In this document: one piece after another, positions 6,321-33,375 of the stretch
Layout of the letters: each line of letters starts with the position of its first letter
Position numbering within the stretch: the stretch's first letter is position 1
Assembly (NCBI GenBank): GCA_017470735.1
Contig: JAFUYB010000053.1
Span: forward strand, 1 to 50,464
Direction of reading: 5' to 3'
DNA length: 50,464 bases
DNA from: Lachnospiraceae bacterium
GTDB lineage: Bacteria; Bacillota; Clostridia; Lachnospirales; Lachnospiraceae
The notes under the pieces: generated by a model
Seen by the model: the letters and a program-made list of their open reading frames with translations, nothing else
The model's database searches: none
Told to the model about the DNA's origin: nothing
Program-made: the position numbers and the translations under genes

Positions 6321-6418
6321 TATTCCATGAAAAATAGATGACCTGCTGTCGGCTATTGACGATGAATATCCGTTTTACGCAGTAAAAACACCCGTCAATA
6401 ATTATATCAAATTATAGA

Positions 6419-6736: not shown

Positions 6737-6751
6737 GGAGGTGGATCCATC

Positions 6752-8340: not shown

Positions 8341-8549
8341 GATATCACCCCTGTGGTTTAAAATTGGAGATATTTTAGCCTATCAAAGAAAGAAAATATC
8401 CACAAATAAACTATATATCTTATGATTAGGGTTGTCAAGTTTAAAATGGGATAGTTATTCTTTAATATGGGGGAATAAATGGAAAATAATAAACTGTGGC
8501 AGTGCAAGGGAAGTCATCATCTCGATTTAGACAAAACCCGTAAAACCAA

Positions 8550-9281
8550 TCATTTTACGGATTTTATGCAAACATAGACTATCTCCGGGCAGTTGTTGAT
8601 CCGTGGAATCCAAGTCGTGTTGGAAAGCCCACGGCTGATGACCATACTTCCGTAGCTGCCTGTATGGATGCCAGCAGTGTATTTTGGAAAGAATCCCTGC
8701 CCGGGGGCGTATAGACCCTGCCCGCCGACACGGATCTGTCCGCCATGTGCATGACCGGAAAAGACAAGATCAATACTGCGATAGGCAAGTTTTGGATCCT
8801 GAAGCATAAAATATTCCGGTCTGTGGGAGAGCAGTATCTTGTATCCGTCGGACTTCTGAAATTTCGACAGCCAGATATACTCCGAAGTCTGATAGGAGTA
8901 CGCCGCTGCCGATAACCCGCCAAGATAAATACTGTCTGTCAGTTCTATATATCTATTATCAAGTATCATAATATCCGTCTTTTCGATATCTTTTAGCTGC
9001 ACTGCGGGAGCGGCACACTCATGGTTTCCATAGGAAAGATAGGTCGGGGCAATCGCCGCACATTCATTCAGAAAATCCAAAGTGTTACCATATGAGACAT
9101 GGCGGTAGTGCCTGTGCCGGACATAGCCGTTGACCAGATCCCCGGCAATACAGAGGCTGATCCCAAGTGCATTTGCAATCACTTCTAGCCGGTCTATTTT
9201 TGGGATTCTGGCACCGATTTCATATTTTTTTATCATGGAGAGGTTAATATCGGATTCCCGGCTTAAATCCTCTTGGGACAT
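8550..9281 (-). CDS. Chimeric XRE-type HTH fused to a truncated metallophosphoesterase
   Basis: The HTH (MSQEDLSRESD...RLEVIANALGISL) continues upstream in frame to 9347 as ...NIAGRIKLFRRLRG, but no ATG/GTG/TTG is available there. The C-terminal part carries GNHE and SGHAHGGQIR motifs, while the N-terminal DxH/GDxxD metal motifs are missing. Confidence 0.5.
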   Translation of the reverse strand: MSQEDLSRESDINLSMIKKYEIGARIPKIDRLEVIANALGISLCIAGDLVNGYVRHRHYRHVSYGNTLDFLNECAAIAPTYLSYGNHECAAPAVQLKDIEKTDIMILDNRYIELTDSIYLGGLSAAAYSYQTSEYIWLSKFQKSDGYKILLSHRPEYFMLQDPKLAYRSIDLVFSGHAHGGQIRVGGQGLYAPGQGFFPKYTAGIHTGSYGSMVISRGLSNTTWIPRINNCPEIVYVCIKSVK

Positions 9282-10043
9282 CCCACGCAGTCTGCGGAAA
9301 AGTTTGATCCGTCCAGCTATATTCTTTGAATGTATATAAAATAGAGCTTAATAAAGGTTTGATTTACATCTGGACAGCAATACAAAGAGATGTTCTACTA
9401 GGTCTGTGATGTATTTGGGAATCAAGTCCGATTATGATTTGGAGATTATGAAGGCTGGAGAAGATCTGTTTGATATCAATATCCTCCAATGACGCGCCAT
9501 TTTTATATTTTCGGGTCATGGGATTATAAAACAGGGTTTTATAACCGCCAATCTGTGCATAATTATGAGATGTCCTTGAGCACGGAAAAAGCAATATTTC
9601 TGTCAGTTACGACCAAACCTTTTATTTTCAGCTAGATTTGTAATTTGATTTTCATAACTAAAGAAAGTATCTGCCATAAATTCACCATTGCTTTCAAAAA
9701 GAAAGAGACCTACAGGCCTCCTTCCCGGTCGCAGGCATCTCGAGTTTCTGCAACCTGATCACTTCAAACATTCTATGATATATCGCCATTTGTGTCAATA
9801 GAATTATTATAGTCGCCAGGGTTCTTTCTCATGATTCTTGCAACAGCGATAGTGGAAGAACTTGTTCTTATTAGCACGGATGAGCGTATGAGAAAAGAAG
9901 AATTACAATGCCAAGGTGAATTGCTGAAGGACGGCAGGATGGAAGAATAAAAGCAATTGTATAAAAATAGATATTATAGAAATAGCCTGAGCGGGATGCC
10001 CAGGCTGTTTTTGTGTGGGATATGTTTTGTTTTTACTGTTATG

Positions 10044-18643: not shown

Positions 18644-18727
18644 TGCGGAGGATGGGACTTGAACCCACACGACATTGCTGCCACTAGATCCTTAGTCTAG
18701 CTCGTCTGCCAGTTCCGACACCTCCGC
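18644..18727 (-). tRNA. tRNA-Leu (class II, long variable arm); the anticodon loop as read is CUAAGGA, i.e. anticodon AAG
   Basis: Reverse complement is GCGGAGGTGTCGGAACTGGCAGACGAGCTAGACTAAGGATCTAGTGGCAGCAATGTCGTGTGGGTTCAAGTCCCATCCTCCGCA. T-loop is GGTTCAAGTCC. A34 is unusual for bacteria and needs checking. Confidence 0.75.
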
Positions 18728-18805
18728 ATTCGTCCGTTGAACGCAACGACTATATTACCAAAGACCCGGAAAAAAGTCAAGAAAGTTGCGGTCAGAAACA
18801 AATTT

Positions 18806-18836
18806 TTTTTCACAAACGCGAAAATTATGCTATACT
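18806..18836 (+). promoter_or_regulatory. Candidate promoter for the HD-GYP gene (extended -10 TGcTATACT)
   Basis: TGCTATACT at 18828-18836. The -35 is weak. Confidence 0.3.
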
Positions 18837-18875
18837 AATACGGCAACTTTGCAGGATTGGCATGGGAGAAAAGTT

Positions 18876-19970
18876 TTGGCGATCAAACAAAAGCGTGTCA
18901 GTATTCGGAAATTGGAAGAAGGGATGAAGCTCGGTCAGCAGATCAGGGATGCGACAGGACGGGTCTTGATCCAGCAGGGGACACAGCTTGAAGGGCATTA
19001 TATCCAGTACTTGGAGGAGCATGGCATCAACTCCATCATCATCCAGGAGGGTGAGGAGGACGGACCGCAGGTGCAGCTTTCGGACAAGGCAAAGCGCGCC
19101 GTTGAGCGGACGAGGGTGGATGATCCGGTCAAGGTTTCGCTGCGTGAAGATGTCAAAAAGCGTGTCGGCGAGGGCGTGCAGTTTTTATTTGACAATACGG
19201 AGTCCAAGAATTTTTTGGAGACGACGAACAATGTTTCCGAGGAATTGACGCGGGCGATCACCAAGTATGACGCTGTGGCGATCGATATTGCGCAGCTTAA
19301 AGTTTCAGATGAATACACATTCAAGCACAGCGTGGATGTGGCTTCCCTGTCGATGATCATTGGCAAGAAATACGGGCTGAAGAGGGACGAGATCCGGGAG
19401 ATCGGTATTGCGGGACTGCTGCATGATGTCGGCAAGTCCAAGATCCCAAAGCAGATTTTAAACAAGCCTGACCGTCTGACCGATGAGGAATTTCATCAGA
19501 TGAAGTTCCATTCCTTGTATGGTTACAAGATTTTGGAAGAAAACAACGGATTTTCCGTCGGCATCAAAAGCGGCGTGCTCCAGCACCATGAAAAGATGAA
19601 TGGAAAGGGTTATCCGATGTCGGTCGGCGGAGCGAAGATCCATCCGTTTGCGCGGATCATTTCGGTTGCGGATGTTTACGACGCATTGGTCACGGAACGC
19701 CCTTATAAAAAAGGTTTTCCGAAGAAGGACGCGATCGAGATCATTATGACGATGACCGATGACCTGGATATGAAAGCGATGAAGAGCTTTCTGACGAGCG
19801 TGATCCTCTATCCGGTGGACAGCATCGTCAGGCTTTCAAACGGCGAATACGGCAAGGTCGTTGAAAACAATCCCGATTACCCATTACGCCCCAAAGTCGT
19901 GGCGACCGAGACAGGCGCTGTGTACGATCTGAACAATGATGTCCACTGCCAGAGCATTGTGATTCTATAA
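18876..19970 (+). CDS. HD-GYP domain c-di-GMP phosphodiesterase
   Basis: HSVDV...LLHDVGKSKIP...HHEKMNGKGYP...VADVYDALVTERPYKKGF. TTG start at 18876 after GGGAGA. An alternative ATG lies at 18924. Confidence 0.8.
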   Translation: MAIKQKRVSIRKLEEGMKLGQQIRDATGRVLIQQGTQLEGHYIQYLEEHGINSIIIQEGEEDGPQVQLSDKAKRAVERTRVDDPVKVSLREDVKKRVGEGVQFLFDNTESKNFLETTNNVSEELTRAITKYDAVAIDIAQLKVSDEYTFKHSVDVASLSMIIGKKYGLKRDEIREIGIAGLLHDVGKSKIPKQILNKPDRLTDEEFHQMKFHSLYGYKILEENNGFSVGIKSGVLQHHEKMNGKGYPMSVGGAKIHPFARIISVADVYDALVTERPYKKGFPKKDAIEIIMTMTDDLDMKAMKSFLTSVILYPVDSIVRLSNGEYGKVVENNPDYPLRPKVVATETGAVYDLNNDVHCQSIVIL

Positions 19971-20069: not shown

Positions 20070-20154
20070 GCACGAGTGGCGGAATTGGCAGACGCGCAGG
20101 CTTCAGGTGCCTGTGGTCGTTAAGATCGTGTGGGTTCAAGTCCCACCTCGTGCA
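20070..20154 (+). tRNA. tRNA-Leu (anticodon CAG)
   Basis: GCACGAGTGGCGGAATTGGCAGACGCGCAGGCTTCAGGTGCCTG...TGGGTTCAAGTCCCACCTCGTGCA. Anticodon loop is TTCAGGT. A T-run follows and no CCA is encoded. Confidence 0.85.
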
Positions 20155-20206
20155 TTTTTTGTGTATAATTGAGAAAACATTTCAAAACGACAAGGGAGGA
20201 ATGATT

Positions 20207-21232
20207 ATGTCATTATTCAAGAGCAAGCAATTCAGTTCGGTGATCGAGTGGGCGGATCCCGAGGAGGGAGTGCTGTTTCACCGATTTGACAATATCGAGC
20301 TCAAAAAAGGGTCGGTCTGCATCCTGCGCCCGGGGCAGGATGTGATCATTGTCAGCAACGGCGAGGTCAACGGCGTATTTACAAAGGACGGACGCTACAA
20401 TGTGGAGTCGGACATTATTCCGTTTCTGTCTACGGCTGCGGGCATTAAGTTCGGCTTTGACAGCGGACGGCGCATTGAAGCGGTTTTCGTCAACACCAAG
20501 GATATTTTGCAGAACTGGGGCACGCGCAGTCCGATCAATATCGAATTTCCGGGACTGCCGGGAGGCATACCGGTACGGGCAAACGGCAATTTTGTCTGCC
20601 ATGTCGATGAGGAGAAATACCCGGTTCTTGTCGAAAACATCGCCGGTATCCAGACCGAATTTACGGTAGAGGATCTGCGGGAACGGTTGCTCGGATCGAT
20701 CGAACAGTCGCTGATGCAGCATATTTCCCAGCTCGCGGGGACGATTCAGACCCTGCAGTCACAGGTGAGTACGATTTCGGCGGAGATTCTGCCGGAGATC
20801 GATGCGGAGACATCAAAATACGGCATCCGTATCCGTGATTTCAAGGTGATGAGCTTTTCCTATCCCGAAGGCGTGCAGGAGAAGCTCGAACAGGCCGCGG
20901 GTATCGGATTGCTGGGGAACAACATCGCGGCTTACCAGCAGGTGGCGCTGGCAGACGGCTTGCGCGAAGGCGGCGGAGCTGCAGGCATGGCAGGCATGTT
21001 TGTCGGTGCTCAGGCAGGCGCGCAGATGGGACAGAATTTCGTGGCAGGCGCAGCCCAGAACGCGGCAGGCGCAACTCAGAATGCAGTAGGCGGTGCCGGA
21101 ATGGGCGCAGCACAAAACGCGGCGGGAGCGGCACAGCAGCCGTCAGGCGGCGGTTTCTGCATTAAGTGCGGGACAGCGCTTCCGGCAGGCGCGGCATTCT
21201 GCCCGTCCTGTGGTAACAAGGTCGGTGCGTAA
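20207..21232 (+). CDS. SPFH (band-7/flotillin-like) domain protein with a Gly/Ala/Gln-rich tail and a C-terminal zinc ribbon
   Basis: AGGGAGGA RBS. The ORF-track start at 20150 overlaps the tRNA, so it was trimmed to the ATG at 20207. The C-terminus reads ...GGGFCIKCGTALPAGAAFCPSCGNK. Confidence 0.65.
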   Translation: MSLFKSKQFSSVIEWADPEEGVLFHRFDNIELKKGSVCILRPGQDVIIVSNGEVNGVFTKDGRYNVESDIIPFLSTAAGIKFGFDSGRRIEAVFVNTKDILQNWGTRSPINIEFPGLPGGIPVRANGNFVCHVDEEKYPVLVENIAGIQTEFTVEDLRERLLGSIEQSLMQHISQLAGTIQTLQSQVSTISAEILPEIDAETSKYGIRIRDFKVMSFSYPEGVQEKLEQAAGIGLLGNNIAAYQQVALADGLREGGGAAGMAGMFVGAQAGAQMGQNFVAGAAQNAAGATQNAVGGAGMGAAQNAAGAAQQPSGGGFCIKCGTALPAGAAFCPSCGNKVGA

Positions 21233-21299
21233 GCGTCGGGCAGTGTTTCACATCATTGGTATTTGAAAATGGCAGTTGACAAATGGGAGGTGGCGGTCA

Positions 21300-22826
21300 A
21301 TGAGGTCATGCCCGAATTGCGGAGGCGGTCTGAAATTTGACATCGGATCGCAGAAATTAAAATGTCCAAGCTGCAGCAGCATGTTTCCGGTGGGGGAGAT
21401 ACCGGAGGTGCGGGCGGCAAAGGCGGACGGGACGATGGATGCGATGATCTTTTCCTGCCCGCAGTGCGGCGGGGAGGTCTGGTCTACATCAGAGACAGCG
21501 GCAGGCTTCTGTTCATTCTGCGGCGCGTCCGTGCAGCTTGAAGGCCGGATGGCGGCGGAAAAGATGCCCGAGCAGATCATTCCGTTTCAGATTACCGGAA
21601 AGGAATGCGGCAAACGGTTCCGCGAGCATGTGAAAAAATATTTCTTTTCGCCGTCCGATTTGAGCCAGGAAAACGCGAAAATGGAATTCCGCGGGATCTA
21701 TATGCCTTATTGGGATTATACGGTGCACCAGGAAGCGCATATCGACCGGGAATACAGGGATGAGCATCGCAGCGGCGATTACCGGATCGTCCGGTACTAT
21801 GATTTTGACTGGGATCTGAATGAGGATATCGAAGCGATCCAGCACGATGCGTCGCGCTCGTTCAATGATGATGTCGGAGTGGCGATCGCGCCGTTTGAAC
21901 CGGAAAAACGGGTGGCGTTTGACTCCGGCTATATGGAAGGCTTCTATGGCGATGTGGCGGATACGCAGTGGGAGGATTACGCCGATTTCGCGATTGATGA
22001 AGCGGTTGGTTATACGGAGCGCGCGATCCGAACCAAGACAAAGGGTACCCGTACGGACAAGGGACCGACCGGCAATGATGAGTTTCATGGCCGGATTATA
22101 AAGCGTCAGCTTTCGCTGTTTCCGGTCTGGTTTTTGTCATACCGTTCCGGCAACCGGGTCGCGTATTCGGCGGTCAATGGACAGACGGGAAAGGTACATG
22201 TGGATCTGCCGGTGTCGCCGGCCAAATTCGCGGGACTGACTGCGGCGATCACGGCGGTACTGTTTGTGTTCTTTTTGCAGCTTTTTACTCCATCGCCGCA
22301 GACGGATGTCGGGATCGCGATGATCATGTCGATTGCCGCGTCCGCAATTTTTACGGTGATGACGCAAAAGATCCTCGAACGGGATGAACTGCTGGAAAAG
22401 AAAGAGAAAAAAGAGGGAAGCAATCGAAAAAAAGGACTGATTTTAGGCTGCACAGGCAGCTGCCTGATCGTCATTGTCCTTTTCGTATCGATTCTTGTGG
22501 GTTTGGTTTTCTTTATTGAAATAGCGGCAGCAGTGATCGCGCTATGGGCACTGGTCCGTTATTTGCAGAGGAACAAGCTGTTTGTCAAGGCAAACGGACA
22601 GGGCGTGTTCCCGTCGCCGCTTCTGGCATTTGCCGCGGCGCTTTTGGGCATTGCCGTGGTTTTGTGGAATCCGGTTTCCGATTTCTGGTACTACGGCATC
22701 ACGGCGCTGGCAATGGCAGCGGCCGCGATCTCTCTCGGTTCGATCATTGCGCTGCGGAATATGCTTTCGACGAGGCGCTTGCCGCAGTTTGACACGCACA
22801 AAGGAGGTGATCACCGTGCAAGGTAA
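21300..22826 (+). CDS. Multi-zinc-ribbon membrane protein (hypothetical)
   Basis: GGGAGGTGG lies 6 nt before the ATG. There are three CxxC pairs in the first 90 aa (CPNCGG, CPSC, CPQCGG, CSFCG). About six TM helices are predicted in the C-terminal half. Confidence 0.6.
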   Translation: MRSCPNCGGGLKFDIGSQKLKCPSCSSMFPVGEIPEVRAAKADGTMDAMIFSCPQCGGEVWSTSETAAGFCSFCGASVQLEGRMAAEKMPEQIIPFQITGKECGKRFREHVKKYFFSPSDLSQENAKMEFRGIYMPYWDYTVHQEAHIDREYRDEHRSGDYRIVRYYDFDWDLNEDIEAIQHDASRSFNDDVGVAIAPFEPEKRVAFDSGYMEGFYGDVADTQWEDYADFAIDEAVGYTERAIRTKTKGTRTDKGPTGNDEFHGRIIKRQLSLFPVWFLSYRSGNRVAYSAVNGQTGKVHVDLPVSPAKFAGLTAAITAVLFVFFLQLFTPSPQTDVGIAMIMSIAASAIFTVMTQKILERDELLEKKEKKEGSNRKKGLILGCTGSCLIVIVLFVSILVGLVFFIEIAAAVIALWALVRYLQRNKLFVKANGQGVFPSPLLAFAAALLGIAVVLWNPVSDFWYYGITALAMAAAAISLGSIIALRNMLSTRRLPQFDTHKGGDHRAR

Positions 22827-23775
22827 ACAGAAAAAGCAGGGAAGAACGCCTTTTGCGCGGCTGGAATCAGGCAGGCACGCCCGCTGTGCGGGATGGAAGA
22901 TGAGAATGGCATTTTTCGGTCTGCTGGCGGTTCTGTTGTGTGCGATAGTGCCGGGCAACGCGGTCTGTGCCGCGGAGGAGCTGACGGAAACGGCGGACGA
23001 ATTAAACGGTGCGTCAGATGAACTGTCTGATCCGGCGGACGGGACTGACGAAGCGTACGGAGATGCGGATGCGCAGGAGCAGAGCATCGAACTGGCATAC
23101 AAGAGCGACAAGAGCGGGAAGACGCTGGTCGTAGAGGACGGGGAGAACCTGTTTTCCGATAGTGAGATCCGGCAGTTTATAGAATCCGCCTCAGGCGTGC
23201 TGGAATATGCGAATGTCTATATCGTGACTTCAAGCGAAGAAAATTACGAAGGGTACGCGAAACGGCTGATTGACGATACCTTTGGCAACGGCTCGGATTC
23301 GACCTTGTTTATGATCAACATGAATCCGCGGAAGCTCTATATTTTCTCGGAAGGACAGGCGAAAAAGACACTGACGAAGGACAAGGCGCGGACGGTCACC
23401 GACAATATTTACCGTCAGGCGAGCCTCGGAGCGTACTATGCCTGCGCCGAGAAAGCGCTACGCCAGGAAGCGACGCTGCTTTCGGGAGGACGGATATTGG
23501 AGCCGATGAAGTATATCGGCGATTTCTTCCTCGCGTTTATGGTCGCCATCCTGCTGGTATTCGGGCAGACATTCTGGCTGCGTCCGAGGGAGAAGCGGGA
23601 AGTGATCGCCGGCATCGACGAAGCGGTGCTGGCAGCGATCGCATCGGGCATTGCGTTCAGCTTCAGCCGGGAGGAAAAGATTTACGATCCGCCAAGCAGC
23701 AGTGATTCCGGCTCCGGAGGAGGAGGCGGATTCAGCGGCGGTGATTCTGGTGCCGGCGGCGGGCATTCGTTTTAA
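22816..23775 (+). CDS. TPM-domain (YgcG-like) secreted/membrane protein
   Basis: AAGGAGGTG + 6 nt + GTG at 22816, overlapping the previous gene by 11 nt. There is a signal peptide. An acidic linker is followed by the TPM fold, one TM helix and a C-terminal SGGGGGFSGGDSGAGGGHSF tail. Confidence 0.6.
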   Translation: MQGKQKKQGRTPFARLESGRHARCAGWKMRMAFFGLLAVLLCAIVPGNAVCAAEELTETADELNGASDELSDPADGTDEAYGDADAQEQSIELAYKSDKSGKTLVVEDGENLFSDSEIRQFIESASGVLEYANVYIVTSSEENYEGYAKRLIDDTFGNGSDSTLFMINMNPRKLYIFSEGQAKKTLTKDKARTVTDNIYRQASLGAYYACAEKALRQEATLLSGGRILEPMKYIGDFFLAFMVAILLVFGQTFWLRPREKREVIAGIDEAVLAAIASGIAFSFSREEKIYDPPSSSDSGSGGGGGFSGGDSGAGGGHSF

Positions 23776-23787: not shown

Positions 23788-24858
23788 TTACAGTTTGCGC
23801 ATACGGTCAGGATTGATCGCATAGGTCATTGCAGTTTCCCGCGTGATGCGCCCTTCGTGGTAAAGCTCCTTTAAGCTGTCGTCCATCGAGCGCATCCCGC
23901 CGCCGGTTCCCGAATAGATCATACCGTCAATCTGGTAGATCTTGTTGTCGCGGATCATGTTGCGGATCGCGGGCGTGACGGTCATGATCTCAAAGACCGG
24001 CACGATGCTGTTGTCGATGGTCGGCACGAGCTGCTGCGAGACGACGGCATGCAGCACGGTCGAAAGCTGTACCGCGATCTGGTGCTGCTGGTTTGCCGGG
24101 AACACATCGATAATACGGTTGATCGTATTGGCGGCACCGATCGTATGCAGCGTGGACAGCAGCAGGTGTCCGGTTTCCGCGGCCGTCATTGCGACAGAAA
24201 TCGTTTCAAAATCACGCATCTCACCAAGCAGGATGACATCGGGACTTTGGCGGAGCGCCGCGCGCAGGGCGGCGACATAGCTTTCGGTATCGACGACAAC
24301 CTCGCGCTGGCTGACGATGCTTTTTTTGTGCCGGTGCAGATACTCGATCGGGTCTTCAAGAGTGATGATGTGCGCTTCCCGCTTTTCGTTGATATCTTCA
24401 ATGATACACGAAAGTGTCGTGGATTTGCCCGAGCCGGCCTGGCCGGTCACGAGCACCATGCCGTTGGAGAAATTGCCGAGGTCGATGATCTCCTGCGGGA
24501 TGTGCAGCTTTGACGGATCGGGCAGCTCAAAGCTGATGATACGCATAACCGCGGACAATGCGCCCCTCTGTTTGTAGGCGCAGACACGGAATCTTGAGAA
24601 TCCGGGGATCGCAAGGGAAAAGTCGTCGTCGCCGCGGTCGATCAGGATGCGGATATCACGGTCGGCAAGGCGGTAGATTTCCCGCAGCAGTTCTTCCGTC
24701 TGCGCCGGGAATACCTTTTCTCCGCCGTCCATATTGATCACGCCGTTCTTGCGGAAGGACACCGGTATACCTGCGACGATGAACACATCGGATGCGCGTT
24801 CCCGTACTGCCCGCTCTAAGATCTGCTCGATTCTCGTTTTCTCTTCCATAGTAGTCAC
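23788..24858 (-). CDS. pilT: PilT-type type IV pilus ATPase (retraction-ATPase family)
   Basis: Walker A (GQAGSGKST). PilT signature AIRNMIRDNK. 356 aa. Confidence 0.8.
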   Translation of the reverse strand: MTTMEEKTRIEQILERAVRERASDVFIVAGIPVSFRKNGVINMDGGEKVFPAQTEELLREIYRLADRDIRILIDRGDDDFSLAIPGFSRFRVCAYKQRGALSAVMRIISFELPDPSKLHIPQEIIDLGNFSNGMVLVTGQAGSGKSTTLSCIIEDINEKREAHIITLEDPIEYLHRHKKSIVSQREVVVDTESYVAALRAALRQSPDVILLGEMRDFETISVAMTAAETGHLLLSTLHTIGAANTINRIIDVFPANQQHQIAVQLSTVLHAVVSQQLVPTIDNSIVPVFEIMTVTPAIRNMIRDNKIYQIDGMIYSGTGGGMRSMDDSLKELYHEGRITRETAMTYAINPDRMRKL

Positions 24859-24888
24859 CTCGTGTATGGTCGTTTGTTGTCAAAATAA

Positions 24889-25350
24889 TTACCGTATGAC
24901 ATTTACGGTATCGTCGCCCTCCCAATTCTTGGTGGCGATTGTTTTAAACTCCGAAAACCGGTAGGCATTGGTTTCTTTGTCGTATTTAAAGACAACGGAC
25001 AGCGCCTGGATATCGGAAAGCTCATACTGGCGGCTGATTTTTGTTTCTAGTGTATCCGGGGTGGCATTGTCGGCTGTATCCGCTGCATCCGGTTCTGTGC
25101 CGGCTGCATTATTTCCACTGCTTGCCGCCGCCTTTCGGTTCAGCTCCGCTAAGTCCGTCTCCGCCTGGTTTGCCGCGGCATAATAGGCGTCGCGGCTGCT
25201 TTTGGTCAGTCCTGCCTGATGCCATTCGTTTTCCGCCTGCACGAGTGCGATCGCGGAAAAGGTGAACAGGCACAAAATCAGGAACACGACTAGAAGCAGT
25301 GAGATGCCGATATTCGCGGGTGGCGAAGCGTTGTTGCGTTCTGTGTTCAT
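24889..25350 (-). CDS. Small membrane-anchored protein (pilus-associated, hypothetical)
   Basis: A single N-terminal TM helix. The gene is co-directional and tightly spaced within the pil-like cluster. Confidence 0.45.
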   Translation of the reverse strand: MNTERNNASPPANIGISLLLVVFLILCLFTFSAIALVQAENEWHQAGLTKSSRDAYYAAANQAETDLAELNRKAAASSGNNAAGTEPDAADTADNATPDTLETKISRQYELSDIQALSVVFKYDKETNAYRFSEFKTIATKNWEGDDTVNVIR

Positions 25351-25369
25351 AAAAAGAAGCTCCTGTCAC

Positions 25370-25834
25370 TTATGGCGATGGTTGCTTTGCGTGATTGACG
25401 GACAGACTGTACACCTCGTCGCCATTCACATTGCGAAAGGTCAGATCGGCGTTTAGCATGTCGTCCGTTTCCGTCAATTGTACCGTCTCGACCTGCGCGA
25501 GCGTGCTCTTTGCCGTCGGCAGGTAATTGTCGTTAAAGTAGATCGAGATTTCATAGGGATCGGATTCCTGCGAAAGCTCCGCGTATTCATATACCCGCCC
25601 GATCTGCTGGGATACTTCCTCGATCGAGTTGGAGGTCCGTACCAGCTCCGCCGTGTCCGAGCAGATGTTCAATGCGTGGTTCAGCGCCTTGGCGCGTTCG
25701 CTCTGGATGTGCGCCTGCACGAAAATGGTAATGCACACGGACGCCGCCAATGTAAAAAACAAGATCGCGACGACAAGCTCCATCAGAAAGAGAGAGGAAG
25801 CAGACGCTCTTTTTCGCTTTAATTCCGCATTCAT
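25370..25834 (-). CDS. Prepilin-like protein (type IV pilin / pseudopilin candidate)
   Basis: The N-terminus KRKRASASS|LFLMELVVAILFF has Glu at +5 from the putative cleavage site, with Ser instead of the canonical Gly at -1. The stop overlaps the next gene's start by 4 nt. Confidence 0.5.
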   Translation of the reverse strand: MNAELKRKRASASSLFLMELVVAILFFTLAASVCITIFVQAHIQSERAKALNHALNICSDTAELVRTSNSIEEVSQQIGRVYEYAELSQESDPYEISIYFNDNYLPTAKSTLAQVETVQLTETDDMLNADLTFRNVNGDEVYSLSVNHAKQPSP

Positions 25835-26415
25835 GGTGTTCCTCCGGTTGATGTATCCGTGCTCTGGCCTGTTGCCGCAGCTGTCCCCGGTGTCTTGCTG
25901 CTTTCCGTGAAGCTGTTATCGACAACCAGATCCCCCGCATACACGCCGACCCGCGCTGTCGCCGTCTGTCCGTCGTTGTCCGTGCAGGAGAAAGACAGCA
26001 GGCGGTCTCCGGCGACCTCTACATTGAAATCCGCGATCTCGAGGATCGCCTGGCCGGAGGATGCGGTGAAATTCGCTTCCATGCCGTCCTTGATGAACAG
26101 CTCCCTCAACGCGCCGTTTGCCGCGTAAATATAAGTAGCGTACCAGTCATCGCCGAATTTTTCCTTCATCACGACTGCCTTAGAACCGTCAAAGGTCGTC
26201 ACGCCGATCCGCCCGTTGTCGTGCTGGTGGATCTTCTCGCGGATGTAGGAGAGCGAGGTGTTGGCGTTGTAATTCATGGCCGCGTCGGCAACCGTCCGCT
26301 GGTATACCTGCGCCGCGAAAAGAATGACGATCAGCGCAGAAAGTGTGAATGCAAAAAAAATCATAACAGGAAATACAAATTCAATTTGCCGGTTTTTTGA
26401 AACAGGTTTCCGCAT
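25831..26415 (-). CDS. Membrane-anchored protein (pilus-assembly accessory, hypothetical)
   Basis: N-terminal TM helix with a Thr/Gly-rich C-terminus. Confidence 0.45.
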   Translation of the reverse strand: MRKPVSKNRQIEFVFPVMIFFAFTLSALIVILFAAQVYQRTVADAAMNYNANTSLSYIREKIHQHDNGRIGVTTFDGSKAVVMKEKFGDDWYATYIYAANGALRELFIKDGMEANFTASSGQAILEIADFNVEVAGDRLLSFSCTDNDGQTATARVGVYAGDLVVDNSFTESSKTPGTAAATGQSTDTSTGGTP

Positions 26416-26434
26416 ATTGTTACTTTCCTTGGTG

Positions 26435-26902
26435 TTACCTTAAAATAGTGCGGTTTTCGGCGCGTTCGAGGATATTATTCTTCATCTCCTCTTTCTTTTC
26501 TAACACCGCATACACGGTCTCCTGCGCGAAGCCGATTGCCTTTTGCGCAGGCGTGCGGGTGTCTTCGGGATGCAGCTCGATGATCGTCACATCGGGAATA
26601 ATGTTCTGCGCCCGCACCTGATAATCCACATAAAACAGGTCTTCATTGTAATACAGTCCGTAATCCGAGCGGATGGCCTCAAGGGATTCCGGATAATGTC
26701 CGGTCGTGGCGTAGCAGTAGACGATGTCGCGGGAGAGCGCGTCGGTCAGGCTTTCCTTCTGTCTTTTGGTGGAGCCTTTGCTTAAAGAACCCGTGCCGAC
26801 CACAAAAAGCACGATGACCATCGTAAACAGCAGCAGGGTCGGAAGCAGTGAGGCAAGCGTGCCGGTATGCCGTTTGGTTGTGATATAAGAAAACCGTGCC
26901 AT
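26435..26902 (-). CDS. Membrane-anchored protein (hypothetical)
   Basis: N-terminal TM helix. No canonical prepilin motif. Confidence 0.45.
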   Translation of the reverse strand: MARFSYITTKRHTGTLASLLPTLLLFTMVIVLFVVGTGSLSKGSTKRQKESLTDALSRDIVYCYATTGHYPESLEAIRSDYGLYYNEDLFYVDYQVRAQNIIPDVTIIELHPEDTRTPAQKAIGFAQETVYAVLEKKEEMKNNILERAENRTILR

Positions 26903-26970
26903 AAATCAACTCCCCGGCACTCCCGGGACAGATGCTTAAAAACCAGCAGCACATCCCGGCAGCATTCCCA

Positions 26971-28107
26971 TTACAATGTCGCCATAATCCCAAGCAGCGG
27001 GAACATTACGGACAGCAGGATCACACCGACCACGACCGAGAGCACGACGATCAGCGCGGGCTCTAAAACCGCCAGCCGGTTGGAGATTTTTGTGTCTATT
27101 TCATCTTGGTAAAGCGTTGCGATCTGCCCCATGACCTGGTCGAGCGAACCGGTCTTGTTGCCGATTGAGGTCAGGCGCGAATACACGCCGGTAAAAATGC
27201 TCGTCTCGTGAAGCGCGTCGGAAAGCGATGTGCCCTCCAGCATCTTGGCGCGGCACTTGTCAAGCTTCTTGCCAAAGTCTTTATCTTCGTTCAATTCCGC
27301 CACCAACTCAAAGCCGCGGTCAGGCGAGAGTCCGCTCCGCAGGATCAAAGACATGCCGTCCGCAAAACGGCAGGAGGCGATGCGGTCGTTCAGTTCCCTT
27401 GTCGCCTTGAACCGTCTTGTAACTCTTCTCGATAAGGCTTTTCCGGCATCGGTCTTGACGCAGAAGAACGCAAAGATAATGATGACGGCGAGCAGGATTA
27501 CAAACAGCAGCGCGTAGGTGCTGATGAAGTTGGACGCTGCCATCAGTCCCGCGGCAAAGCCTGTCATTTCGGTGCCGAGCTGGCGGAATACCTGGTTGAA
27601 GATCGGCATCACACGCACCAGCAGAATGATAATGACCGCAATGATCATGCCCGACATGATCAGAGGGTAGGTGACCGCGCTCTGGATCGACTGCCGCAGC
27701 TGTTCCTCGCGGCTGTAATGCTCTTCAAGCGCTTCCATGACCTCATCGAGATTGCCGGTTTCCTCGCCGATCGCGACCATATGGATCATATAGTCGGGAA
27801 AAGCTTCCGTAGCGGCCAGGCCGACCGAAAGCTGCCCGGTCAGATGCACGGTCTCCACGATGATCTCGACGATTTGCCGGTCCGCGCCGGTGGAGAAGTC
27901 ATCCTCCATCATTTCCACGCCCTCGATCGAGGAAATGCCGGACTTTAAGATCAGAGCCATCTGCCCGCAGAAATAGGACAGCTCCAGATAAGAGAGCGGA
28001 CGGATTTTTTTCCGGCGGCTCTTTTTGGGCTTCTTTGCCCGTGGCTCCTTTTTTGGTTTTTCGGTTTTTATTTTTGCTCTTTTTCGTGGCATAATCTTTC
28101 CCGTCAT
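26971..28107 (-). CDS. pilC: PilC/GspF-family platform protein with an unusual ~45-aa Lys/Arg-rich N-terminal extension
   Basis: Two T2SSF repeats (GISSIEGVEMM...; GLSPDRGFELV...). The N-terminus reads MTGKIMPRKRAKIKTEKPKKEPRAKKPKKSRRKK. Confidence 0.75.
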   Translation of the reverse strand: MTGKIMPRKRAKIKTEKPKKEPRAKKPKKSRRKKIRPLSYLELSYFCGQMALILKSGISSIEGVEMMEDDFSTGADRQIVEIIVETVHLTGQLSVGLAATEAFPDYMIHMVAIGEETGNLDEVMEALEEHYSREEQLRQSIQSAVTYPLIMSGMIIAVIIILLVRVMPIFNQVFRQLGTEMTGFAAGLMAASNFISTYALLFVILLAVIIIFAFFCVKTDAGKALSRRVTRRFKATRELNDRIASCRFADGMSLILRSGLSPDRGFELVAELNEDKDFGKKLDKCRAKMLEGTSLSDALHETSIFTGVYSRLTSIGNKTGSLDQVMGQIATLYQDEIDTKISNRLAVLEPALIVVLSVVVGVILLSVMFPLLGIMATL

Positions 28108-28166: not shown

Positions 28167-29096
28167 TCAATAGGTATATTTTGTCGTGTAATTGCTGCCG
28201 TCTCCGACATAATCCTTCACCGATTCGTCGTCGTTGTTGGCGGCAAGCGTCGGATCCATCAGAGACCAGTTCTGGCCGTTAAACTGGATGATGTCGTCCA
28301 CCCAGCCCTGCTCCGCCAGATAGACGGAAATCCATGCGTGGTAGGCCGTGCCCGAATAGCCGACCTCCAGCTTGGTCGGGACGCTCTGGGAACGCAGCAT
28401 GGCGCTCATGACCGAAGCGTAATCGAAGCAGATGCCGGTCTTGGATTCTAAGGTCGCGTCCACATCGGGGATATAGTTGACCGAAATGTCGGCCGCCTTT
28501 TCATTGTCATAGGAAATATTTTCGGTGACATATTCGTACACATTGGTCACGAAATCCAGGTCATCCGAGGAGTCATTGGAAATATCGACGCCCAAAGAGA
28601 CCGCGGCGGAATCCGGTGTGTAATTGACATACTGGTTCGGATAGAGGTACGGGCGGAATTCGTCCGTCAGTGCCACATCCACGGGCTGTGAAAGCCCAAC
28701 GGAATACATATCATCCGAAACGTGCTCCAGCACATCGATCTGGTACGAACCGTCGCCGCCGGTCAGAGGCAATGTCTGGTAATCGCCGATCGGCAGGGGA
28801 TACTGATACAAAGTGCCGTCGGGATTCGTGATCTGTACCTGGATCTTGTCCGCGGCACCAGTGTATTTGACCATCACATAGCCGTCTGCCGTGTTGGAAG
28901 CATCGATGGAAATGGTATCGCCGCCGTAGACCACCTCGCCGGAGGCTTCCGGCATCAGCGTGGATGTCGTCGTCTCGCGTGTGCCGCCGGATGAGTCGTT
29001 GCTTTTGGCTTTGCCGCCGCCTTTGGAGCATCCTGAAAGGATGAGCGCGCCGGAAAGCGCAGTGACGCAAAGCAGTGATAAAAATTGTCGTTTCAT
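28167..29096 (-). CDS. Transglutaminase-like cysteine-protease-fold lipoprotein
   Basis: Lipobox LILSGCS. Catalytic triad context: GICFDYASVM, YHAWISVY and LMDPT. Confidence 0.7.
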   Translation of the reverse strand: MKRQFLSLLCVTALSGALILSGCSKGGGKAKSNDSSGGTRETTTSTLMPEASGEVVYGGDTISIDASNTADGYVMVKYTGAADKIQVQITNPDGTLYQYPLPIGDYQTLPLTGGDGSYQIDVLEHVSDDMYSVGLSQPVDVALTDEFRPYLYPNQYVNYTPDSAAVSLGVDISNDSSDDLDFVTNVYEYVTENISYDNEKAADISVNYIPDVDATLESKTGICFDYASVMSAMLRSQSVPTKLEVGYSGTAYHAWISVYLAEQGWVDDIIQFNGQNWSLMDPTLAANNDDESVKDYVGDGSNYTTKYTY

Positions 29097-29151: not shown

Positions 29152-30153
29152 TTATTTATGGTTTACGACCGCGTGCAGGACATTGCCGGTGCGGTCAGGT
29201 ATGTACACATTCAGGTAATCATCCGGATACTGGAAGATCAGCTCACCGATGATCGCGTTGTAGGATGCAGGTTCAACCTTGTTGCCCGCCGAATCGAGGG
29301 CGTATATCCGCTTCCAGTTGACGCCGCTGCCCGTATCCTTGATGTACAGATACACCTTGTCGTCCACGGTCTTGCTCGAAACCAGTTCCGGCACATCGCG
29401 GTCTACGCCGGTCACATTGGTTGTCTCGACGACCGTACGCTTGTTGAGGAAGTTGACCGTCACATCCATCTGCCCATTGGCAGTCGGCAGAATATAATAG
29501 CTCTTTTTTCCGTCCTGCAGGACAGGCATGACCTTGTCGCCGATCTGCGCCGTCGCCGTGTCCACGGGAATGAACGAATCGATAGTGAAAGTGTATTTCA
29601 ACTGCCCGCTTTTCGCTGCCGCCTTGTCGATGTCGAGCGTGTATTCCGGCGTGATCGTAAACAGCGGAATCGCGGCAAAGCAGAGGATGATGAAAAACAC
29701 AAAATACCGCTGCAATGCGTGTCTCTGCATCCGGTATTCATTGTACTCGATCAGTGTCACAAGCGGAATCGTGTTTGGTTTGCGTCCTTCCTCATAAAAG
29801 ACGAATTCTAAAAGCCGCTCGGCATCGTCCAGAGAAAAATCCGGTATTTTCGGACGGCCTTTGGGCGGGACAATGTCCATCGCATCGGCAAGCACCTCGC
29901 ACATTTCGATGTTCATATTGTTCATCCACTTGATGAAATTCTCCGACCGGTTGAGCCGGCTGATCGAGTGCAGGGCGTTTAAATAGATATCAAGGAGCGT
30001 ATCCTGCACTAACGCCTTGTCCCAAAGATAGCTGTATGCCAGCTTGTACTGCTCTTCGTAAGTAATGGCAAAAAGACTCGCAAAGGCATTGCTGTCTTGG
30101 AGTCTGGCATCTTTCACAAGGGATGCAATATATTTGAAATCGATACTTGCCAA
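29152..30153 (-). CDS. Membrane protein with an N-terminal sigma-70 region-2-like domain only (no region 4), one TM helix and a C-terminal extracytoplasmic domain
   Basis: The first ~90 aa (LVKDARLQDSNAFASLFAITYEEQYKLAYSYLWDKALVQDTLLDIYLNAL...FIKWMNNM) match the ECF sigma region-2 pattern. The TM helix is YFVFFIILCFAAIPLF. Confidence 0.55.
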   Translation of the reverse strand: MASIDFKYIASLVKDARLQDSNAFASLFAITYEEQYKLAYSYLWDKALVQDTLLDIYLNALHSISRLNRSENFIKWMNNMNIEMCEVLADAMDIVPPKGRPKIPDFSLDDAERLLEFVFYEEGRKPNTIPLVTLIEYNEYRMQRHALQRYFVFFIILCFAAIPLFTITPEYTLDIDKAAAKSGQLKYTFTIDSFIPVDTATAQIGDKVMPVLQDGKKSYYILPTANGQMDVTVNFLNKRTVVETTNVTGVDRDVPELVSSKTVDDKVYLYIKDTGSGVNWKRIYALDSAGNKVEPASYNAIIGELIFQYPDDYLNVYIPDRTGNVLHAVVNHK

Positions 30154-30195: not shown

Positions 30196-31128
30196 TTACA
30201 ATGCCATCCGCTGGCGGAACAGCTGTACGCGTGTCCGCTTCGTGTCGAGCATCTGCAGCTTCTGCGCGCCGATCAGCGCGATGTCCTCCTGCGTGAAGGT
30301 CACGGAAAGAGGCAGGGGTTCGAGCTGTTCTTCTTCGATCAGCTCCTCAAACGGAATGATTTCCTGCAGCAGCTTTTCATTTTCGCTCTGTTCTTCTTCG
30401 ACAGCGGCTTCGCCGCGGACTTTCTCGGTCAGACGGTTGGATGAAAGAGCAATCAACCGCGTGATCGAGGTGATATCGTCCCGCGCGGCATAGGCCACGC
30501 CAAATTCGTACTCGATGTGATGGTTCTTGGTATTGGCATTGTAATCCCGCACTTTATCCGCCAGGCGGTCCAAAAAGACCGCGAGATGCAGATCGGAGCT
30601 TTTTTCATATAATATAATGAAGCGGTTGCCGCCGTTGCGTCCGACGATGCATTCGTCCAGTGAAGCCATCGACAGAATGATCGAAAAGGCGCGGATCAGG
30701 TTGTTGCCCTCAACGCGTCCATAGTTGGAGTTGACCTCTTTTAATGAAGTCAATTCGATCATCGCGGCGCCCATCTCGCCCGGAATGTCCTTGTCAGCGT
30801 ATTCATCGATGATCGAGTCGATCGAATAGCGGTTGGCGATCCGCGCGACCGAGTCGGTATTGGCGGCTGCGGTCAGGCTCGCTAAATTTTCGTTCTGTTT
30901 TGAGTATAGGGAGAAATCGACAAAGATGCAAGCAAAACTCAAAAAAAGTGATACCCAAAGGAAAATACACAGATGCATGACATTTTTATCCGTGGTGATC
31001 TGCTGGTAGATATCGCTTGCGATGACGATTTGGTAGAAGCAGACGCCTGCGAAGGCCATGAAGACGACGAGTTCTAAGGTTTTCATTTGGTCGAATTTTT
31101 TCATTTGTACACACACCTTTCTCAGCAC
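30196..31128 (-). CDS. Membrane protein with a degenerate GGDEF domain (GGNRF in place of GG[DE]EF)
   Basis: Two N-terminal TM helices. DSVARIANRYSIDS...RVEGNNLIRAF...IVGRNGGNRFIILYE. Confidence 0.6.
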   Translation of the reverse strand: MLRKVCVQMKKFDQMKTLELVVFMAFAGVCFYQIVIASDIYQQITTDKNVMHLCIFLWVSLFLSFACIFVDFSLYSKQNENLASLTAAANTDSVARIANRYSIDSIIDEYADKDIPGEMGAAMIELTSLKEVNSNYGRVEGNNLIRAFSIILSMASLDECIVGRNGGNRFIILYEKSSDLHLAVFLDRLADKVRDYNANTKNHHIEYEFGVAYAARDDITSITRLIALSSNRLTEKVRGEAAVEEEQSENEKLLQEIIPFEELIEEEQLEPLPLSVTFTQEDIALIGAQKLQMLDTKRTRVQLFRQRMAL

Positions 31129-31177: not shown

Positions 31178-32509
31178 TTAAATGCCGATGGCGATATCGA
31201 GGAAAAATTCGCTGTCGGTTGTCGAAATTCGTAAAGTTCCGTTATATTTATCGACCGTTTCGCGGATTGACTGAAGACCTATTCCGTGATGTTTTTCTTT
31301 TTTTGACGAAAAAGTGGGATTTTCGCCGGTTGTATCTAAAATCAACTCACCGTCATAGCTGTTTGAGGAGACGATGTAGAGCATCGAATCGTTCTGGATG
31401 CGGATGGAGATCGAAAATTTCCGCGCGGCGACAGGGGCGTCCTTGGCGGCGTCGATCGCGTTTTCCATGATGTTGCCGAGCAGGGAACAGAATTCCGGAT
31501 CGCTCATGGGAAGCGGACGGGGCAGGTCGACCTGCAGGCTGGCGATCACGCCTTCTTCGGCGGCGCGGGTCTCGTAATAATTCAGAACGGCGTTGATCGC
31601 CGGATTTTTGCAGTATTTTTGCATGATCGTGCCGGCGCTTTCTTTGGCGTATTCACGGATGTAGCTGCGCAGACCTTCGGTATCGCCGGAGGCCGCAAGC
31701 TGTGAGAGCAGGTGCAGCGTATGCTTGAAGTCGTGGCGGGCGTGGCGGTCGGATTCGATCTGTGACAGCAGGCTCTTGTACTGCAGGCTTTGGATATCAG
31801 AAAGCCGCTGCGCCTCTTTGTACTCGCTGATGTGAATGTATTCCAGCAGGTAGGAGTAAAAGATCGAGGTCAGGTAAGCGTAGAGGACGAACAGGGAGAC
31901 CGAGAAAAACAGGTAGGTGCCGTATTGCGAATAGGCGTGCAGGACACGGTAATCATTCGGCAGCATCGCGATATTCAGCCCGAGAAACAATATCGGTACG
32001 GAAAGCCAACCCATCCAGAGGCTTTCCGGCGTATAGTGAGGTGAAAAAATACGGCTGTCCCATTTTGCGACGACGAAATACGCATAGAGGCAGAGCGCGA
32101 TATTTAAAACCAGGTGCATCGTAAATTCATTTACCCCGAAGGACATCGTGACATGCTTCGGGTGAGCCGCCGCATCGATCAGGCTGGTGATATTTGCCGG
32201 AAACATCATCAATACCACTGCCCACAGGTAGACGGTCAGGCTCCGCGCGGGCGTCAGATCGACGGAGAAGAAAAATATCGGAAAATAAATCGCGAAAAAG
32301 ACCAGAAGCGCCCGGTTGTCGATCAGAAAGGTGTGCGTCTGTATCAGTGACATTGCCGGTACGCAGGCGAGGCTGAAAACGGCGCAGTCAAGCACCAGTA
32401 CCGTCGTGGAAATACGCAGGGCAGGTTTTGCGATGATGTAGGCGCAGAAAAAGACACAGAGCAGCTCAAATAAGGCGGAAAGGCTGTTGTAATCGGAAAA
32501 ACCGTTCAT
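31178..32509 (-). CDS. Sensor histidine kinase of the AgrC/LytS-type (HPK10), partner of the LytTR regulator
   Basis: Polytopic N-terminus. H-box RHARHDFKHTL. HATPase G-box HHGIGLQSIRE. Confidence 0.8.
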   Translation of the reverse strand: MNGFSDYNSLSALFELLCVFFCAYIIAKPALRISTTVLVLDCAVFSLACVPAMSLIQTHTFLIDNRALLVFFAIYFPIFFFSVDLTPARSLTVYLWAVVLMMFPANITSLIDAAAHPKHVTMSFGVNEFTMHLVLNIALCLYAYFVVAKWDSRIFSPHYTPESLWMGWLSVPILFLGLNIAMLPNDYRVLHAYSQYGTYLFFSVSLFVLYAYLTSIFYSYLLEYIHISEYKEAQRLSDIQSLQYKSLLSQIESDRHARHDFKHTLHLLSQLAASGDTEGLRSYIREYAKESAGTIMQKYCKNPAINAVLNYYETRAAEEGVIASLQVDLPRPLPMSDPEFCSLLGNIMENAIDAAKDAPVAARKFSISIRIQNDSMLYIVSSNSYDGELILDTTGENPTFSSKKEKHHGIGLQSIRETVDKYNGTLRISTTDSEFFLDIAIGI

Positions 32510-33237
32510 TATTTCTGCCCCTCCCGAAGCTGGTCAAACATGTAATTCTGCCATTGCTGCTCGATCTGTCCCGCTTCCCTTACCTTGATCGGGAATGAGG
32601 TGCCGTCGGTCAGGGAGCAGCTCCCTTTTTCGATGCGGCGGATCTGGTCCATATTGACGACGATCCCTTTGTTGATGATCAAAAAGCGCTTGTCCCCGTT
32701 GACAGACCCGAGGAATTCTTTGGTGGTCATCCGTGTCGTATATTCTTCGCCGCTGCGCGCTTTGATATGCAGGTAATGTCCCTGGCTCTGCGTCCAGACC
32801 AGTTCGGAGAGCGGCAGGCGGATTTCCTGGCGGTTGGACAAGAAAGAAATGTACTTTGTCAGCTCAGGAAGCACTTTTTCGGCATCCGCTAAAAGCGTCG
32901 TCACCCGCTCCTGGGAGATCGGCTTGACGAGATAATCAAAGGCGTGGAAGCGAAACGCTTCGGGCATATTTTCCCTGCTTGTCGTGCAGAAAATGATCAT
33001 CGTGCTTTCGGAGGTGCCGCGGATCTTGCGGGCAAGCTCCAGCCCGTCGGTTTCATCGATGTAGATATCCAGAAATACGATCTGGTAGGAATCCGGGGAA
33101 AACGCCGATAAAAAGGAAGCGCTGTCAGAGAACCCGTCGACCGTCATGGAGATGCCGAGACTGTCCGCGGACAGCGCAAGCAGGTCGCGCAGTGTGCGGA
33201 TAGCTTCTATTTCGTCGTCTACAACAGCAACTCGCAT
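32509..33237 (-). CDS. LytTR-family response regulator
   Basis: AAGGGGGA RBS + ATG at 33237. Receiver domain (VAVVDDE...FLDIYIDE) plus LytTR domain (LSELVWTQSQGHYLHI...KRFLIINKGIVVNMDQI). Confidence 0.8.
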   Translation of the reverse strand: MRVAVVDDEIEAIRTLRDLLALSADSLGISMTVDGFSDSASFLSAFSPDSYQIVFLDIYIDETDGLELARKIRGTSESTMIIFCTTSRENMPEAFRFHAFDYLVKPISQERVTTLLADAEKVLPELTKYISFLSNRQEIRLPLSELVWTQSQGHYLHIKARSGEEYTTRMTTKEFLGSVNGDKRFLIINKGIVVNMDQIRRIEKGSCSLTDGTSFPIKVREAGQIEQQWQNYMFDQLREGQK

Positions 33238-33375
33238 GGCAATCCCCCTTTTTGCGTTCACATTTTGCCAGAGCCTTCGCCATAGCCGTCCAGGCTGTGC
33301 TGAACCGTTTCCGCTATGGAGAATTAAATGCTATTATAATTCATTTTCAGGGGAAAGAAAAGTGGTGGGAATATT

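Follow-up and report, generated by a model that had tools for sequence, protein, structure and literature searches.

Pairs formed by a sigma factor of the extracytoplasmic function (ECF) type and its anti-sigma factor are one of the three main signalling schemes of bacteria. In the sigma factor, the sigma-4 domain (region 4) recognises the -35 element and binds the beta-flap. Three related systems serve for comparison here: the anti-sigma factor RsiV, whose site-1 protease is signal peptidase; RsoA, a small, soluble protein encoded next to SigO, its sigma-4-bearing partner; and T4 gp55, a soluble, active late sigma factor that works with gp33 and the sliding clamp. Fused sigma/anti-sigma proteins that contain both sigma domains are also known, among them IutY of Pseudomonas putida (ECF243) and members of ECF48, ECF52 and ECF53 such as SCO4117, and the origin proposed for fused ECFs is that a sigma gene became translationally fused to its own anti-sigma gene (PMC8999054). 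For the ECF classification, the core is modelled as sigma-2, linker and sigma-4 together (PMC7826278). Because the core is modelled with sigma-4, fusions that contain sigma-2 only are probably invisible to classification pipelines, and our literature search, which found fused and split sigma factors, turned up no description of a sigma-2/anti-sigma fusion without sigma-4. Here we describe such a protein. It is encoded on a 50,464-nucleotide contig of a Lachnospiraceae bacterium (JAFUYB010000053.1, assembly GCA_017470735.1), the whole of which is called the window below.

The open reading frame (ORF) encodes 333 amino acids (aa) and starts at TTG, with the Shine-Dalgarno sequence AGGAAGGTG upstream. 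Both the TTG and the Shine-Dalgarno sequence are kept among orthologues, the TTG in all six of the orthologous genes compared (that of the window included). The protein is identical to MBR1635236.1, recorded as a 'hypothetical protein' from a Lachnospiraceae metagenome-assembled genome (MAG). The gene is divided as follows.

29152..30153, minus strand: whole gene, sigma-2/anti-sigma fusion of 333 aa
29881..30153, minus strand: residues 1-91, domain 2 of an ECF sigma factor, with four helices (6-17, 21-43, 46-66 and 70-91), from profile matches, model and alignments
29833..29880, minus strand: residues 92-107, short Pro/Lys-rich linker, the deletion junction, where relatives carry sigma-4 and a variable spacer (alignments)
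29713..29832, minus strand: residues 108-147, two conserved cytoplasmic helices belonging to the anti-sigma part, LLExVFxExGRKPNTIPLxxLxxYxxYRxxRxxLQR (alignment and model)
29650..29712, minus strand: residues 148-168, single transmembrane (TM) helix with an invariant Pro163 (alignment and model)
29155..29649, minus strand: residues 169-333 (165 aa), two tandem extracytoplasmic immunoglobulin (Ig)/fibronectin type III (FN3)-like beta-sandwich domains, at about 171-247 and 256-331 (model and fold search)

Judged by homology, the protein is the sigma-2 domain of an ECF sigma factor fused to the membrane anti-sigma factor of that same sigma factor, and we have high confidence in this architecture and its origin taken together. 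The AlphaFold2 model of the full-length protein (mean predicted local distance difference test score, pLDDT, 86.5) has helices over residues 6-91, the 16-residue linker, a helix at 108-122, a long helix at 131-166 and beta structure at 171-331. Linker and cytoplasmic helices have pLDDT values of 80-91, and the hydrophobic TM stretch (about 148-168) lies in the long helix. Positive residues lie on the N-terminal side of the TM helix, giving an N-in topology. Foldseek matches the C-terminal part, which is closed by the family signature VYIPDxxGNxLH, to tandem bacterial Ig/FN3-like domains (SiiE, CbhA and LdtMt2 among them). An earlier sequence-only reading of this DNA had described a region-2 domain, a TM helix and an outside domain of about 170 aa, in good agreement with the single helix and 165-residue outer part found here.

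Pfam alone gives a weak match to the sigma-2 domain of the window protein (Sigma70_ECF, E=0.17), and a PDB sequence search with the whole protein returns no sigma factor; profile and fold methods did detect one. The NCBIfam models for ECF sigma factors align to residues 11-86, by about positions 5-80 of the profile only (TIGR02954, E=8.9e-9; SigW, 1.5e-5). By BLASTP, residues 1-85 align to residues 4-88 of an ECF sigma factor encoded at a related locus in a Roseburia MAG (L018, described below), with 40% identity and E=6e-20. The two methods thus agree on the ECF region-2 similarity that the sequence-only reading had proposed, and the concern that the resemblance might be merely compositional is answered by these matches.

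Region 4 is missing from the protein. Sigma-2 and the next conserved segment are separated by 16 residues only, and the alignment has a clean gap of 75-100 columns in the window clade, exactly where r4-bearing relatives carry region 4 and a variable spacer; the relatives with a Pfam Sigma70_r4 match have 75-100 aa extra at the linker position. Every close homologue, from Lachnospiraceae MAGs at 50-92% identity and with a length of 321-347 aa, has the short architecture; Pfam Sigma70_r4 or r4_2 is present in more distant homologues, which are 395-426 aa long. When all window ORFs of 40 codons or more were searched in six frames with a hidden Markov model (HMM) of the sigma part of the family, only the window gene was found, at HMM positions 3-94. 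The family's own r4 HMM found no r4-like ORF at E<0.1, either in the 50-kb window or within 10 kb on each side of 11 other sigma-2-only loci. A hidden region 4 is ruled out by these searches of the window and of the 20-kb loci round the 11 genes. The juxtamembrane motif DDAERLLEFVFYEEGRKPNT was also considered as a degenerate region 4 and rejected, the same motif being the N-terminus of standalone anti-sigma factors that have a complete sigma factor upstream. Because region 4 is absent, the protein cannot be a complete sigma factor, as the sequence-only reading had held on the same ground. That reading had also named a region 4 encoded after a frameshift as a possible refutation and suggested looking for a split region-4 partner; the first is not seen in the six-frame search of the window, in which the gene has no frameshifts or stop codons, and the second is not seen in the window or at the 11 loci. 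For the sigma-2-only relatives P0126 and P0119, the labels are 'RNA polymerase sigma factor', in one Hespellia stercorisuis record, and, in IMG, 'sigma24 family protein'; both mislead, because region 4 is absent. Other database records of family members read 'hypothetical'.

The C-terminal two-thirds of the protein align with an anti-sigma factor. Residues 104-330 match residues 10-235 of the L018 anti-sigma factor with 38% identity over 227 aa (E=1e-47). Two homologues of 237-238 aa have no sigma part at all, and one of them, P0025, is encoded 12 bp downstream of a 187-aa ECF sigma factor with Pfam r2 and r4. An ECF sigma factor with r2 and r4 (167-194 aa) lies 12-55 bp upstream in five of the five standalone loci that have upstream DNA, and the sigma-2 domains of these upstream sigma factors match the family r2 HMM. 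Because the standalone members directly follow complete ECF sigma genes, the family is taken to consist of anti-sigma factors, and homology places residues 104-333 in a previously unnamed family of single-pass anti-sigma factors. Residues 108-147 are presumed to form the sigma-binding segment. Neither Pfam nor NCBIfam matches an anti-sigma domain in the window protein, and its cytoplasmic segment of about 45 aa, with two helices where a class I anti-sigma domain has four, does not contain the HxxxCxxC Cys/His motif. The sequence-only reading had listed a membrane-tethered sigma fragment and an unusual anti-sigma among its suggestions. Both prove apt: sigma-2 without region 4 is anchored by one TM helix, and residues 104-333 share homology with anti-sigma factors whose genes directly follow those of ECF sigma factors. 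As an interpretation it was sound on sigma-2 and the tether, and missed the anti-sigma homology of the C-terminal two-thirds.

Among 1.84 billion cluster representatives, a profile of the juxtamembrane motif, TM helix and Ig part (residues of about 100-333) picks out 772 proteins with E<=1e-3, of which 200 reach E<=1e-30; most matches are about 235 aa long without an N-terminal extension. When 192 collected sequences were classed by the family HMMs, three architectures were found: 118 standalone proteins (about 225-260 aa), 41 complete fusions with r2 and r4 (384-464 aa) and 33 sigma-2-only fusions (283-387 aa, median 334). The sigma-2-only proteins fall into at least 17 clusters at 50% identity, 16 of these beyond the window protein's own clade. 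A scan of species-representative genomes gave 22 loci, all from rumen or gut MAGs, with the labels Clostridiales, Lachnospiraceae, Oscillospiraceae, Erysipelotrichaceae, Eubacterium, Roseburia and Parasporobacterium.

Another possible reading is a partner switch in cis. The window protein would then be a working anti-sigma factor for a complete ECF sigma factor encoded elsewhere, and its fused sigma-2 a PhyR-like autoinhibitory mimic, which would sit on the sigma-binding helices until it is displaced by a signal from outside. The anti-sigma segment is indeed conserved as much as in the standalone forms, but no second family locus was found in any MAG (a genome scan with a single peptide pattern over incomplete MAGs), no sigma gene lies near any sigma-2-only locus in the window and the loci searched, and a competitor tethered in cis would be very hard to displace. 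We consider a switch of this kind distinctly improbable.

The origin of the fusion is indicated by the L018 locus, where the gene order is GGDEF-like, sigma (194 aa), anti-sigma (238 aa), transglutaminase lipoprotein, T2SSF, small proteins including DUF4860, and T2SSE. This is the operon of the window with the sigma and anti-sigma genes separate and both intact, and its sigma factor is a normal ECF (PDB SigW 3e-14 and RpoE 4e-7; Pfam Sigma70_r4_2 1.7e-13 and Sigma70_ECF 6.4e-8). Because the window protein is co-linear with both L018 proteins (residues 4-88 of the sigma factor, then 10-235 of the anti-sigma factor), an origin by deletion and fusion is indicated. The alignments show the source to be an ordinary adjacent sigma/anti-sigma gene pair, for which L018 displays the ancestral state. 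The deletion began in the sigma-2/sigma-4 linker and took out sigma-4 with its stop codon, the spacer and a few codons at the start of the anti-sigma gene, so joining the two frames. What appears to be a recent natural intermediate of such a deletion-fusion is provided by P0168 (387 aa), in which the first half of sigma-4 (...LPPQYSQAIIMRYYNNMSF), preceded by sigma-2 and the linker, runs directly and in frame into the anti-sigma N-terminus, and whose C-terminal part is 63% identical to the standalone anti-sigma factor P0166 (244 aa).

A rough, unbootstrapped neighbour-joining (NJ) tree of the C-terminal part places 24 sigma-2-only proteins, that of the window included, in one clade, and 36 complete fusions resembling P0016 in a separate clade nested among standalone forms. 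Parsimony on this tree gives roughly 10 architecture changes, an approximate count, which implies that fusions arose several times. Direct descent from the complete fusions of 395-426 aa was considered and rejected, since these form the separate clade and the two genes are separate in the closest relative at operon level.

Sigma-2 is the most conserved segment when the protein is compared with its three closest orthologues (L001, L029 and L009), at 81-86% aa identity against 62-71% for the Ig domains. Two more distant orthologues break this pattern, for example L010 (sigma-2 44%, Ig domains 50%). For sigma-2, the nonsynonymous rate (dN) is 0.09-0.12 and the synonymous rate (dS) is saturated, with dN/dS at about 0.05-0.06 where it can be estimated, values that show, at the level of codon comparison, purifying selection on the domain. 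This bears on whether the protein might be a non-functional remnant, that is, a broken sigma/anti-sigma pair in the process of being lost, or else a sequencing or assembly frameshift that hides region 4. An ECF sigma factor that lost sigma-4 would normally be inactive, and the 'hypothetical' label in databases would suit a remnant. Set against this, the same architecture of 318-349 aa recurs in the 17 or more clusters, from independent samples; several independent contigs carry the same gene; the frame runs without frameshift or stop codon through a linker of just 16 aa; and dN/dS for sigma-2 is about 0.05. A remnant or artefact is barely credible, and is already contradicted by the data.

The fold of sigma-2 is intact in the window protein, and Tyr8, the SNAFAxL motif, Asp51 and Tyr57 are conserved across all three architectures. 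The sigma-2.2 motif is VQDTLLDIY, as against AQDALQETF: the Asp is kept, the Gln has become Leu and the neighbouring Glu has become Asp. We take these positions to be the equivalents of D403, Q406 and E407 of sigma-70, as known from its core-binding mutants, with Asp51 corresponding to D403. The sigma-2.2 Gln is present in four of five standalone sigma factors, 5/41 complete fusions and 3/33 sigma-2-only fusions. Trp76, in region 2.3, persists in the window clade but has been lost from six of 17 diverse sigma-2-only members. Read from these alignments, the fold and N-terminal helices are well kept, and the positions that appear to have decayed are linked to core binding and DNA melting. As a separate observation, the sigma-2 domains of the complete fusions P0016-P0064 score below the Pfam threshold, and these proteins may not be conventional releasable sigma factors either.

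The window gene lies between a GGDEF-like gene and a lipoprotein gene, as had been noted from the DNA alone, and the genes around it are these.

30196..31128, minus strand: membrane protein whose GGDEF domain is degenerate (GRNGGNRF), the upstream partner gene
28167..29096, minus strand: transglutaminase-core lipoprotein (lipobox LSGC), first gene of the downstream type-IV-filament block
23788..28107, minus strand: type-IV-filament (pilus/pseudopilus-like) genes, namely T2SSF platform, a 155-aa protein, a DUF4860 protein, two proteins of about 154 aa, and T2SSE ATPase
26971-28107, minus strand: T2SSF platform
23788-24858, minus strand: T2SSE ATPase
32509-33261, minus strand: LytTR response regulator, at the head of the gene string
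31178-32509, minus strand: GHKL histidine kinase, at the head of the gene string

In the small GGDEF-like membrane protein, GRNGGN[KR]F replaces GG[DE]EF. Its gene stands immediately upstream of the sigma or fusion gene at every locus (L001-L036) that has upstream DNA, in all three architectures, and in the window clade the protein has an extra acidic C-terminal tail of about 70 aa (303-325 aa, compared with 223-274 aa elsewhere). From its sequence it looks like a third component of the module, with a dead active site. The six sigma-2-only loci whose protein is 26-33% identical to that of the window all keep the GGN[KR]F gene, and five of them (L030, L032, L033, L035 and L036) also keep the transglutaminase/type-IV-filament block; the sixth, L034, has a sortase/SpaA pilus locus instead, without transglutaminase or type-IV-filament genes. 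One of the six is from a cultured carrier, Hespellia stercorisuis DSM 15480 (L033, WP_073111856.1). The LytTR regulator and its kinase are common to the window clade, occur as a two-component system at L032 and are absent from L018, and L030 has a BTAD regulator. A general account in which the LytTR system replaced the sigma factor was rejected: it fits the window clade and L032 only, the other sigma-2-only loci being without LytTR.

Some further features of the surrounding DNA are recorded here. The type-IV-filament block on the minus strand (23788-28107) contains no prepilin peptidase gene, its small proteins have no obvious G/FTLxE prepilin motif, and a literature search found nothing on DUF4860. 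Within 20 kb of the operon there are three genes of cyclic di-GMP type, encoding a GGDEF-EAL protein (878 aa, 10789-13425, plus strand), a Reg_prop beta-propeller and GGDEF sensor (1298 aa, 13484-17380, minus strand) and an HD_5/HD-GYP-like protein (394 aa, 18786-19970, plus strand); the Hespellia locus also has a GGDEF-EAL gene nearby. Just past T2SSE, on the opposite strand (20150-23775, plus), are genes for an SPFH/Band-7 protein that has a zinc ribbon, a zinc-ribbon/DUF7351 protein and a TPM-domain protein. A scan for sigma-70 promoters and terminators gave results at chance level, and Rfam shows no riboswitch in the window, only two tRNAs, whose genes are at 18644-18727 (minus) and 20070-20154 (plus). 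Positions 1-10000 have a GC content of 39-46%, as against 50-55% in most of the remainder, contain numerous short ORFs besides an HTH_3-metallophosphatase gene (8550-9281), and may be a mobile or foreign segment.

All complete-fusion loci, and three of five standalone loci, have a gene for an S26 type-I signal peptidase upstream of the GGDEF-like gene (L004, L005, L012-L017, L019-L022 and L024-L028). It is found nearby in four diverse sigma-2-only loci (L030 and L033-L035) and is absent from the 50-kb window. By analogy with RsiV, this peptidase could be the site-1 protease of the anti-sigma factor, or it could be a processing enzyme for surface proteins. Its presence in the wider module is one of the points in favour of an active sigma fragment, in which a signal sensed by the Ig domains would lead to regulated intramembrane proteolysis, and sigma-2 would then act on RNA polymerase (RNAP) as a decoy competing at the beta' clamp helices, as half of a split sigma factor (RsoA to a SigO-like partner, with sigma-4 in trans), or as a sigma factor reading the -10 element only, like T4 gp55. 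The intact fold, the strong purifying selection and the retention of Asp51 and Trp76 would all suit such a role; the fused sigma/anti-sigma protein IutY is activated by regulated intramembrane proteolysis (PMC8999054), and SigO-RsoA is a precedent for split sigma factors (PMC7826278). Several observations run the other way, however. The peptidase gene is absent from the window itself, and no r4-like ORF was found there or at the 11 other loci. Replacement of the near-universal, beta'-contacting sigma-2.2 Gln by Leu somewhat weakens the decoy idea, which the sequence-only reading had also put forward, and Trp76 has been lost in more than one in three of the diverse sigma-2-only members. Nor could a shared ECF-type promoter be defined upstream of the module, where counts of bipartite motifs are not above those in shuffled sequences. 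Taken as a whole, an active fragment seems unlikely, and it is quite unlikely that a released stub of about 150 aa, comprising sigma-2 and the anti-sigma segment, binds the beta' clamp as half of a two-subunit sigma factor or as a membrane-gated sigma competitor.

The proposal that we prefer, and put forward tentatively as somewhat short of probable, is that a pseudo-sigma has been kept as a built-in ligand of the anti-sigma factor, in a membrane sensor or scaffold that works with the GGN[KR]F protein. A role of the window protein in transcription initiation has most likely been lost, because sigma-4 is gone and sigma-2.2 has degenerated, its Gln/Glu having become Leu/Asp. Sigma-2 would be retained as a permanently attached, co-folded ligand for the cytoplasmic helices of the anti-sigma part, and the whole protein would act as a single-pass membrane sensor or scaffold. 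Its probable partner would be the always co-encoded, catalytically dead GGDEF membrane protein (GGN[KR]F) at the head of the type-IV-filament operon. Transcriptional control of the operon has, in the window clade, probably passed to the LytTR two-component system inserted upstream. In the best AlphaFold2 model of residues 1-147 (pLDDT 87.5, predicted template modelling score 0.82), sigma-2 and the helices form a compact unit.

A number of points weigh against this proposal. Only one of the five AlphaFold2 models of residues 1-147 is confident, the other four being poor, and the binding of sigma-2 to the cytoplasmic helices is something that we infer from modelling. The GGN[KR]F partner is an unstudied component. 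Complete r2+r4 fusions have also lost the sigma-2.2 Gln (Gln in 5/41; mostly Lys, Arg or Glu), and the loss may reflect tethering and not loss of function. Strong purifying selection with Asp51 and Trp76 retained would fit contact with RNAP or DNA equally well. Finally, no alternative transcription factor is found near the sigma-2-only loci L033, L035 and L036, and replacement of the regulator is therefore not general.

With an ancestral state and a half-way intermediate, these loci show a sigma/anti-sigma pair being remodelled by simple deletions, the products of which are stable, strongly selected sigma-2/anti-sigma fusions. The selection on these fusions implies that the sigma-2/anti-sigma complex, or the anti-sigma factor itself, has a function without promoter recognition. 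They also define a new conserved module, made up of S26 peptidase (often), dead GGDEF protein, sigma and anti-sigma, which is tied to pilus- or adhesin-type loci and hosted by rumen and gut Lachnospiraceae and their relatives. If sigma-2 were an active fragment after all, this would be a new coupling of surface signals to transcription, evolved repeatedly in gut Clostridia.

Compared with the described systems, the window protein has the sigma-2 domain of an ECF (group 4) sigma factor and lacks its sigma-4 domain. PhyR of Alphaproteobacteria differs in having both sigma-2-like and sigma-4-like halves and a receiver domain, in being soluble and in binding its anti-sigma factor in trans, and the window protein is not a sigma mimic of the PhyR type. 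T4 gp55 differs in having no membrane anchor and no anti-sigma part. SigO-RsoA provides a likeness, a polypeptide with sigma region 2 and without region 4 (PMC7826278), whereas the window sigma-2 is membrane-anchored and fused to an anti-sigma factor, with no region-4 partner nearby; it thus departs from the definition of a split sigma factor in its missing sigma-4 partner (none at E<0.1 in the space searched). The anti-sigma part resembles RsiW, RseA and RsiV (for the RsiV system see PMC4183432) in its short cytoplasmic N-terminus, single TM helix and outside sensor, and its cognate sigma factor is SigW-like; in contrast to them, it carries a covalently attached sigma-2 and has the two-helix segment of about 45 aa in place of an HxxxCxxC zinc motif. 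IutY and the ECF48/52/53 proteins likewise have, within one polypeptide, an N-terminus derived from a sigma factor, then a TM helix and a sensor domain outside the cytoplasm, but they belong to other phyla, have other sensor domains and keep both sigma-2 and sigma-4, being released as working sigma factors. Of a complete ECF core, TM helix and sensor, the window protein has the last two and lacks the sigma-4 of the first, whereas its relatives P0016-P0024 have all three.

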